Translations under genes and position numbers: made by a program | Part shown: positions 16,531-17,076 of the stretch, piece after piece | Position numbering within the stretch: position 1 is the stretch's first letter | Layout: every line of letters begins with the position of its first letter | Source of the DNA: Escherichia coli | GTDB taxonomy: Bacteria; Pseudomonadota; Gammaproteobacteria; Enterobacterales; Enterobacteriaceae | Reading direction: 5' to 3' (one strand) | NCBI RefSeq assembly: GCF_003334815.1 | Contig: NZ_QOWO01000054.1 | Length of the DNA stretch: 18,303 bases | Notes under the pieces: generated by a model | What the model was told of the DNA's origin: nothing | The model's database searches: none | What the model saw: only the letters and a program-made list of their open reading frames with translations

Positions 16531-16589
16531 CCGTTCCTGACTCCGATACAGTGGTCTGGTGCTTTAGTATTACTGAACAGCAAAAAAAT

Positions 16590-16614
16590 GCCTCCCTCAG
16601 AGATGAAGGGAGGC
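16590..16614 (-). terminator. Intrinsic terminator-like hairpin oriented for minus-strand transcription
   Basis: gcctccct-cagagatga-agggaggc, an 8-bp GC-rich stem with a 9-nt loop. A run of seven A precedes it on the plus strand, which is a U-run after the hairpin on the minus strand. No U-run follows on the plus strand. Confidence 0.4.
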
Positions 16615-16719
16615 GGAAGAATAAGGCTTGTCTGATGAAACAACTCCCATGCCCGTTGGAAGTCGGATTACGGTTATTTTTTAACATATTTAGCAGGCGG
16701 AATTAAAGAGGAGAGAGGA

Positions 16720-16932
16720 ATGAATGGATTCAGAAACAGTTCACGGAACGGTCAGGTCTGGCGTTACCAGCGTGCCGGCGGGCGGGCCGTTATTCTGGAG
16801 GTCAGTGGACGCTGGATGGAAGCGGCAGAAGCATGGCGACGGGCTGCCTGCATAGCTCCCCGGACAGACTGGCAGCAGTTTGCCCGGAAAAGGGCTGAAC
16901 ACTGCCACCGGCGCTGCCGGGGAAGGGTGTAA
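16720..16932 (+). CDS. Small basic W/R-rich protein, possibly an ANR-family-like regulator; identity uncertain
   Basis: 70 aa with a strong RBS (AGAGGAGAGAGG) before the ATG at 16720. Helix-like motif GRWMEAAEAWRRAA...DWQQFARKRAEHC. GC-rich relative to its AT-rich surroundings. Confidence 0.45.
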   Translation: MNGFRNSSRNGQVWRYQRAGGRAVILEVSGRWMEAAEAWRRAACIAPRTDWQQFARKRAEHCHRRCRGRV

Positions 16933-16941
16933 CGAAAAAAG

Positions 16942-16973
16942 CAGCCTTCATTACACCAGAAGTCAGAAGGCTG
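16942..16973 (-). terminator. Second terminator-like hairpin oriented for minus-strand transcription
   Basis: cagccttc-(16-nt loop)-gaaggctg with AAAAAA immediately upstream on the plus strand, which is a U-run after the hairpin on the minus strand. Sits right at the stop codon of the 70-aa ORF. Confidence 0.35.
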
Positions 16974-17076
16974 AAAGGAGTTTATGAGATTTGCTTTTTT
17001 TAATATCCGGTCGGGCAGTATGACCGGACAGTTCTGAGTAGCACAGAGTTTTTTCCGTATTAAGTCGTGATTTTAT

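Follow-up and report, generated by a model that had tools for sequence, protein, structure and literature searches.

On balance, the ANR-family regulator gene downstream of the tra operon is likely to be covered by a conserved antisense transcription unit in the stretch of Escherichia coli DNA analysed here (18,303 nt, referred to as the window). A minus-strand promoter at 17097..17070 would start an RNA at about 17063, which would form a 5' hairpin (17029..17005) and then meet hairpin 2 and its run of six U residues (16973..16935). Hairpin 2, a long-loop structure that leftward transcription reaches shortly ahead of the ANR stop codon, would be a weak terminator. Transcripts stopping there would be small RNAs of ~126-129 nt, complementary to the ANR 3' untranslated region only, and those reading through would lie opposite the ANR coding sequence, over the stretch that is listed as AS-pc02. 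The read-through RNAs would be halted at hairpin 1 and its U7 tract (16614..16582), a predicted strong terminator of the canonical type that would prevent antisense transcription from entering finO in most plasmids and traX in the window. Hairpin 1 may also end a separate RNA of ~90-100 nt starting near 16671-16685. Termination at the two hairpin sites, leakiness of hairpin 2 and an effect of the RNA on ANR expression are inferred from the sequence; by analogy with other plasmid antisense RNAs, such an effect could be exerted through duplex-dependent decay or transcriptional interference.

The features of the window are as follows:

7693-9924: traD
9924-15218: traI
Between traI and traX: ORF of the DUF2726 type
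15772-16530: traX (TIGR02755, 355.8 bits)
16590-16614 with the U7 tract at 16582-16588, minus strand: hairpin 1, candidate strong distal terminator at the tra operon boundary
16641..16665, minus strand: hairpin 3, conserved stem-loop between the ANR start codon and hairpin 1
16671..16686, minus strand: possible second start, weak (TGtTAAAAA at 16686..16678, start predicted near 16671)
16720-16932, plus strand: gene of the 70-aa ANR-family regulator (NCBIfam NF033650, 33.5 bits against a cut-off of 32)
16942-16973 with the U6 tract at 16935-16940, minus strand: hairpin 2, candidate proximal terminator, probably leaky
17014..16829, minus strand: match to Rfam RF02876, AS-pc02 ('Antisense to pHK01_099'), 181.9 bits
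17005..17029, minus strand: 5' hairpin of the antisense RNA as predicted by RNAalifold (TCCGGTC/GACCGGA, 9-nt loop)
17063, minus strand: putative transcription start or major 5' end of the antisense RNA, mapped from plasmid pAA by sequence
17070..17097, minus strand: candidate sigma-70 promoter of the antisense transcript (promoter scan, 9 of 12 matches)
17178-17639: thermonuclease-family gene
17705-17893: Hha-like gene

Location and plasmid background of the locus

Judged by its sequence, the window covers the 3' end of an F-like transfer region. The ANR-family ORF is annotated in relatives as 'ANR family transcriptional regulator', and the 70-aa product gave no Pfam match. The finO gene, which normally lies between traX and the ANR gene, was missing at that place in the window. 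The region was carried by around 4,900 of the 72,556 plasmid records searched. In most of these records the homology to the window starts at 16582-16584, within the A-run of hairpin 1, and in most relatives this point lies directly past the finO stop codon. The version of traX found in the window belongs to a separate F-like lineage without finO, comprising 318 plasmids (e.g., RIP71a).

The window looks like a recombinant, or mosaic, of two plasmid lineages. Up to ~16719 (traX, the spacer, hairpin 1 and the ANR leader) it matched the finO-less lineage, and from the ANR ORF onward it matched classical F/R100-type plasmids. The whole junction was common to two records only, CP099216.1 and CP099212.1. 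In the finO-less plasmids RIP71a (L029) and CP099215.1 (L030), traX is followed by the same 51-nt spacer, the A-run and hairpin 1. Their ANR-like gene is longer than that of the window and is followed by hok/sok in place of the AS-pc02 flank. The ANR-like gene of RIP71a has a plus-strand terminator-like hairpin at its end, which was read by eye and was not listed by the scan. The hok/sok matches (Rfam RF01794, 92-94 bits) were located at 3391-3547 of the RIP71a locus and 1660-1816 of the CP099215.1 locus, a few hundred bases past the ANR-like gene, and the module carries a strong minus-strand promoter-like sequence, TTGACC-18-TACAAT, aimed at the ANR-like gene and hairpin 1. Protein-level searches of plasmid and genome collections for distant homologues returned IncF-type relatives only, which limited the depth available for covariation analysis.

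The hairpin at the transfer operon boundary

The earlier note on this DNA had described two hairpins, at 16590..16614 and 16942..16973, each followed by a U-run on the minus strand only. Both were confirmed, with U7 and U6, respectively. Hairpin 1, read on the minus strand as GCCTCCCTT-CATCTCT-GAGGGAGGC (16614..16590), has a stem of 9 bp with 6 G-C pairs and a loop of 7 nt, or 4 nt in an alternative fold, the usual range for intrinsic terminators being 3-8 nt. It is followed by one base (A) and then by U7, corresponding to the plus-strand A7 at 16582-16588. Hairpin 1 was picked up by the consensus terminator scan. Its predicted folding energy as minus-strand RNA was -16.8 kcal/mol (z = -4.1), and none of 200 shuffles folded as well. 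When strict terminator criteria (stem of at least 8, loop of 3-8, at least 6 T in the tail and at least 5 G-C) were applied to both strands of the 18.3 kb, hairpin 1 was the sole match, against 0.11 expected from dinucleotide shuffles.

Eleven distinct variants of hairpin 1 were present in the fetched F-like loci, with folding energies of -11 to -21 kcal/mol, and all 11 were followed by U5-8 on the minus strand. The base of the stem, GCCTCC/GGAGGC, was invariant, while the inner stem and the loop differed among variants. In finO-bearing plasmids, hairpin 1 begins at the finO stop codon; the A-run sits past this codon, indicating that coding constraint does not explain it. Hairpin 1 was also kept in the two finO-less plasmids, which lack the AS-pc02 flank. 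It is thus kept whatever adjoins it on the right and therefore belongs to the boundary itself. This fits a role as a backstop against leftward transcription entering the transfer operon, and hairpin 1 is, on these sequence features, very likely a working minus-strand terminator. The suggestion of the earlier note that such elements insulate the tra operon suits hairpin 1 well, as it is canonical, conserved and always located at the finO/traX boundary.

Hairpin 2 and the AS-pc02 family

Hairpin 2, read on the minus strand as CAGCCTTC-(16-nt loop)-GAAGGCTG (16973..16942), has a stem of 8 bp with 5 G-C pairs, followed by one base (C) and by U6, corresponding to the plus-strand A6 at 16935-16940. 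It had been placed on the stop codon of the 70-aa ORF, which was slightly off: the TAA is at 16930-16932, the A-run begins 2 nt after it and the stem 10 nt after it. The folding energy as minus-strand RNA was -12.6 kcal/mol (z = -2.5), and 5 of 200 shuffles did as well. The stems of both hairpins are within the ~5-14 bp typical of intrinsic terminators, and both U-tracts begin within 2 nt of the stem and reach the customary minimum of 5-6. The loop of hairpin 2, 16 nt here and 14-17 nt in relatives, is longer than the usual 3-8 nt, and the standard terminator scan missed hairpin 2 because its loop exceeds 8 nt. In the looser class that holds hairpin 2, three members were observed in the 18.3-kb window and 1.64 were expected from shuffles, indicating that hairpin 2 is not beyond chance on sequence alone.

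The support for hairpin 2 as a terminator candidate is its conservation across aligned sequences. The stem was kept in 17 of 18 aligned relatives, and RNAalifold predicted it independently. In the pair counts, 96% of the positions were paired and three pairs were changed on both sides; for four of the five measures, at most 2 of 500 shuffles reached the observed values. The Salmonella-type loci L016 and L017 carry the equivalent CAGCCTCC/GGAGGCTG followed by U7 in another context, which constitutes a compensatory change. In L024, the stem contains a U-G pair in the minus-strand RNA only, the plus-strand RNA having a C-A mismatch at this place. At the corresponding position, the loci L015 and L026 carry another hairpin, with U8 after it. 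Hairpin 2 was absent in L022 and in the finO-less L029 and L030. There was little covariation to count, since the stem hardly varies within the E. coli set. The conservation among related plasmids by which the earlier note would have its reading judged was seen for hairpin 1 (11 variants, U5-8) and for hairpin 2 in 17 of 18 relatives, but not for hairpin 2 in L022, L029 and L030. For the covariation analysis proposed there, the pair counts of hairpin 2 gave the three two-sided changes, with scarce stem variation in the E. coli set.

It is very improbable that hairpin 2 is a non-functional chance inverted repeat kept only by the close kinship of the plasmids. Such a reading would accord with the class count of 3 observed versus 1.64 expected, the 16-nt loop, the nearly constant stem in the E. 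coli set, the lack of hairpin 2 in L022 and the different pairing in the Rfam consensus. It is opposed by the selection of hairpin 2 by RNAalifold, by the compensated version with a longer U-run in another context in L016 and L017 and by the different hairpin followed by U8 in L015 and L026. The Rfam pairings, in turn, also lack covariation, with 87% paired and shuffles equally good.

On the plus strand, both hairpins lack a subsequent T-run: GGAAGAATAAGG follows hairpin 1 and AAAGGAGTTTATG follows hairpin 2, and neither scan gave a plus-strand match. The nearest plus-strand T-run lies ~22 nt past hairpin 2. A reading of the hairpins as bidirectional terminators was ruled out, as the T-run is lacking on the plus strand. 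The plus-strand folds had energies of -17.7 kcal/mol for hairpin 1 and -12.1 kcal/mol for hairpin 2. Among the hairpin 1 variants, the minus-strand RNA was the more stable in six, equally stable in two and less stable in three; assignment of the strand of hairpin 1 by wobble pairs was set aside, as these counts give a weak minus-strand lean only.

The hairpins might instead act in the plus-strand mRNAs, either protecting the tra/finO and ANR messages from 3' exonucleases or serving as processing marks, with the U-runs incidental. Both immediately follow plus-strand stop codons (finO in relatives, and ANR), they fold about equally well as plus-strand RNA, and three hairpin 1 variants fold slightly better in that orientation. 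In addition, the strict scan of the 18.3 kb detected no plus-strand intrinsic terminator, including after traI, traX, the ANR gene and the nuclease gene, so that another 3'-end element would be needed. We nevertheless consider this distinctly unlikely. It leaves unexplained the A5-8 preceding hairpin 1 in 11 of 11 variants and the A-run, outside coding sequence, preceding the hairpin 2 equivalents in three sequence contexts. Moreover, several variants contain pairs that would be mismatched (A-C) in the plus-strand RNA but form G-U wobbles in the minus-strand RNA, and minus-strand RNA is documented in relatives.

The match to RF02876, AS-pc02 (E = 5e-48), covered model positions 1-185 of 185, with a score far above the gathering score of 40, and was the sole above-threshold Rfam match in the whole window. 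A search of the other Rfam families over 15500-18303, with E up to 10, gave nothing credible. The match lies opposite codons 37-70 of the ANR-family ORF. The pHK01-like locus L009 scored 229.5 bits, with the match placed identically with respect to the ANR gene; L009 and L018, both pHK01-like, have the same layout as the window and the top RF02876 score, and the other relatives scored 75-208 bits. AS-pc02 is cited as originating from RNA-seq of the IncFII plasmid pHK01 (Jiang et al. 2017, FEMS Microbiol Ecol 93:fix090, as cited in PMC9029176 and PMC11980398). An RT-PCR signal for the family has been obtained in outer-membrane vesicles of one hlyF-positive STEC strain, ED1374 (PMC12370729). Both hairpins most likely belong, by their position, to an antisense RNA locus already catalogued in related plasmids. 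The proposal of an unannotated antisense or small RNA in the earlier note thus gains support from relatives, through the full-length RF02876 match and the 5' end mapped in pAA.

The catalogued AS-pc02 has its 5' end on the right-hand side of hairpin 2 and continues for ~110 nt beyond this hairpin, into the coding sequence of the ANR gene. Because it spans straight through hairpin 2, this hairpin does not stop all transcripts in pHK01. A small hairpin upstream, UCAG-CCUU-CUGA in the window, would compete for the 5' arm of hairpin 2; pHK01-type plasmids have a stronger competing hairpin, AUUCAG-CCUU-CUGAAU, and five U residues after hairpin 2 compared with six here. Read-through of hairpin 2 may accordingly be greater in pHK01 as judged from these sequences, which would fit the longer catalogued RNA. 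The terminator assignment of the earlier note is very likely right for hairpin 1 and is weakened for hairpin 2 by the extension of AS-pc02 past it, the long loop and its lack in L022; hairpin 2 is a plausible minus-strand terminator on the strength of its conserved stem and U-run.

The consensus structure of the Rfam family had 87% of cells paired and showed no covariation beyond that of shuffles, and its 3'-most helix was 58% paired. In this structure the 3' arm of hairpin 2 is paired to the U-tract, and the terminator stem is not formed. Since those pairs never vary, they are indistinguishable from the terminator fold. For the 5' half of the RNA, RNAalifold favoured another fold than the Rfam consensus. 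The 5' hairpin predicted at 17029..17005 had 94% of cells paired, with both partners changed in two pairs, and the Rfam 5' end (17014) lies within it.

A minus-strand protein gene was rejected as an explanation for the region (ORFs 16951..16802, 16908..16741 and 16687..16517). The frame of ORF 16951..16802 shifts because the U-run after hairpin 2 is 5 or 6 among relatives, and ORF 16687..16517 contains hairpin 1; the plus-strand ORF passes the NCBIfam model. A 17-codon plus-strand ORF (MRFAFFNIRSGSMTGQF) is located at 16984-17037, inside the AS-pc02 region, with AGGAG 3 nt before its ATG. The AGGAG was present in window-type variants only, other relatives having AATAATGC, and the ORF, as judged from its sequence context, is probably not a gene.

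Candidate promoter, 5' ends and relation to known antisense RNAs

A promoter could not be located when the hairpins were first described. A candidate, TTGTGA-16-TAAAAT, has now been found at 17097..17070, with the -35 element TTGTGA at 17097..17092, a spacer of 16 nt and the -10 element TAAAAT at 17075..17070. It was kept in most F-like relatives and was identical in pAA (L028, NC_018666.1) of E. coli O104:H4, in which the same region has 93% identity and the plus strand corresponds to the minus strand of the window. In Dataset S2 of the dRNA-seq study of pAA, position 39919(+), opposite the ANR remnant, is given as a 5' end with a step height of 72.78, which is among the taller ones in the rows listed, and an upstream sequence ending in ...TTGTGAAATTAATCACAAAATATAAAATCACGACT (PMC5066232). 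It is located exactly 7 nt downstream of the homologous -10 box, and the equivalent position in the window is 17063. In the dataset, 39919(+) is classed as an antisense 'processing site' with a TEX-/TEX+ ratio of 1.9 and not as a primary start; the study also reports that several 'processing sites', including those of repA2 and finO, were real starts according to RACE (PMC5066232). Taken together, the hexamers and the mapped end suggest that the promoter of the antisense RNA has probably been found. The 131-nt RNA from 17063 to 16933 had a fold z score of -4.25.

Two other elements were considered as promoters for the Rfam 5' end at 17014, and each is a doubtful candidate. CATACT (17022..17017) is without a usable -35 element, and the extended -10-like TGTGCTACT (17045..17037) has a C at the critical second position here. 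The loci L010, L014 and L022 carry TGTGATAAT where the window has TGTGCTACT.

A perfect CRP-type palindrome, TGTGA-N6-TCACA, was found at 17081-17096. No other copy occurs in the window, the chance expectation being 0.03. The palindrome is flanked by the divergent starts deduced from pAA, 17063 on the minus strand and ~17134 on the plus strand for the nuclease gene, the latter from oTSS 39848(-) as listed for pAA (PMC5066232). One half-site of the palindrome is the -35 element of the candidate antisense promoter. The site was kept as TGTGA-N6-TCATA in L010 and L014, where the downstream gene differs.

A third stem-loop, hairpin 3, was present in 13 of the 13 correctly registered variants among 14 folded, L030 being out of register. 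Its stem was changed in, e.g., L024 and L013, it was more stable as minus-strand RNA in 11 of the 13, and it was followed by a U-rich minus-strand stretch in most relatives. Upstream of the hairpin 3 and hairpin 1 homologues in pAA, two further antisense ends are recorded. Dataset S2 gives 44115(+), a weak end with a step height of 8.76 classed as a processing site, and the primer table names 'aTSS_44129', a position absent from the final TSS list (PMC5066232). Position 44129 is 7 nt after the extended -10-like TGTTAAATA. In pAA, an IS66-family element (40049-44210) is inserted near the 5' end of the ANR gene, leaving the AS-pc02 region ~4 kb from the finO-end hairpin. Because this insertion separates them, the ends at 44115 and 44129 are independent of the AS-pc02 promoter.

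Each terminator could accordingly serve a small RNA of its own with negligible read-through: one of ~128 nt (17063 to ~16936), opposite the ANR 3' untranslated region, and one of ~90-100 nt (~16671-16685 to ~16583), opposite the ANR 5' leader. The two pAA ends split from the AS-pc02 promoter by the insertion, the -10-like box 7 nt before 44129 and the persistence of hairpin 1 in lineages without the AS-pc02 flank would all suit this arrangement, as would the succession of hairpin 3, U-rich linker and terminator, a layout typical of small RNAs. However, 44129 is not in the final list, and 44115, a weak end in the processing-site class, may originate from transcription initiated within the IS element at 43772(+). 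The -10-like hexamer of the window lacks its final T, and the versions in the window and L029 are poor. The Rfam RNA, furthermore, extends past hairpin 2, indicating some read-through in pHK01. We regard two separate RNAs as unlikely to be the whole account and prefer a single antisense unit with a leaky proximal hairpin and a distal backstop.

A more elaborate form of regulation is speculative and has little probability: two small antisense RNAs would bracket the ANR gene at its 3' end and 5' leader, hairpin 2 would serve as a tunable gate, and the carbon source would exert control through the CRP-type site. Carbon-source signals could set the level of the plasmid regulator because the antisense promoter overlaps the CRP-type palindrome shared with the divergent nuclease promoter.

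The closest known counterpart is AS-pc02 of pHK01; judged by the pHK01-like plasmids, it shares both strand and location with the match in the window and lies opposite the 3' part of the ANR-family gene that follows finO. The copy in the window scored 181.9 bits compared with 229.5 bits for the pHK01-like copy, and finO is absent upstream of it. The RF02876 entry (185 nt) omits the promoter-proximal 49 nt (17063-17015) suggested by pAA, as well as the distal terminator. With regard to the pAA antisense ends, pAA has promoter hexamers and two terminator-like hairpins that are the same as, or equivalent to, those of the window, but the IS66-family element splits the ANR gene in pAA and uncouples the two minus-strand regions. 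In the lists of the pAA study both antisense ends stand as processing sites, without characterisation of the RNAs, and its 3' RACE table covers other RNAs and does not include these antisense RNAs (PMC5066232).

The arrangement resembles that of plasmid antisense RNAs in general, in that a short structured RNA lies opposite its target, with target-complementary loops and a terminator hairpin at its 3' end. FinP/traJ, CopA/repA and Sok/hok are plasmid systems in which a cis-antisense RNA ends in an intrinsic terminator. FinP, CopA and Sok pair with 5' leaders or ribosome-binding regions, whereas the short form predicted here would be complementary to the 3' untranslated region of its target only, and the predicted antisense RNA of the window has no sequence relationship to FinP, CopA or Sok.

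The gain for AS-pc02 is modest: the family acquires a probable promoter and a probable genuine 5' end, together with two candidate 3' ends. The conserved reverse-facing terminator, very likely functional, delimits the transfer operon from the maintenance region. The locus is present in thousands of clinical IncF plasmids and adjoins genes for small nucleoid-associated and anti-activator proteins (the ANR family and Hha). If the antisense RNA controls the ANR gene, it would be one more RNA switch tuning the interaction between plasmid and host. If the improbable bracketing and gating also proved true, carbon-source signals could govern the amount of a plasmid-borne regulator of AraC-type and H-NS-type control.
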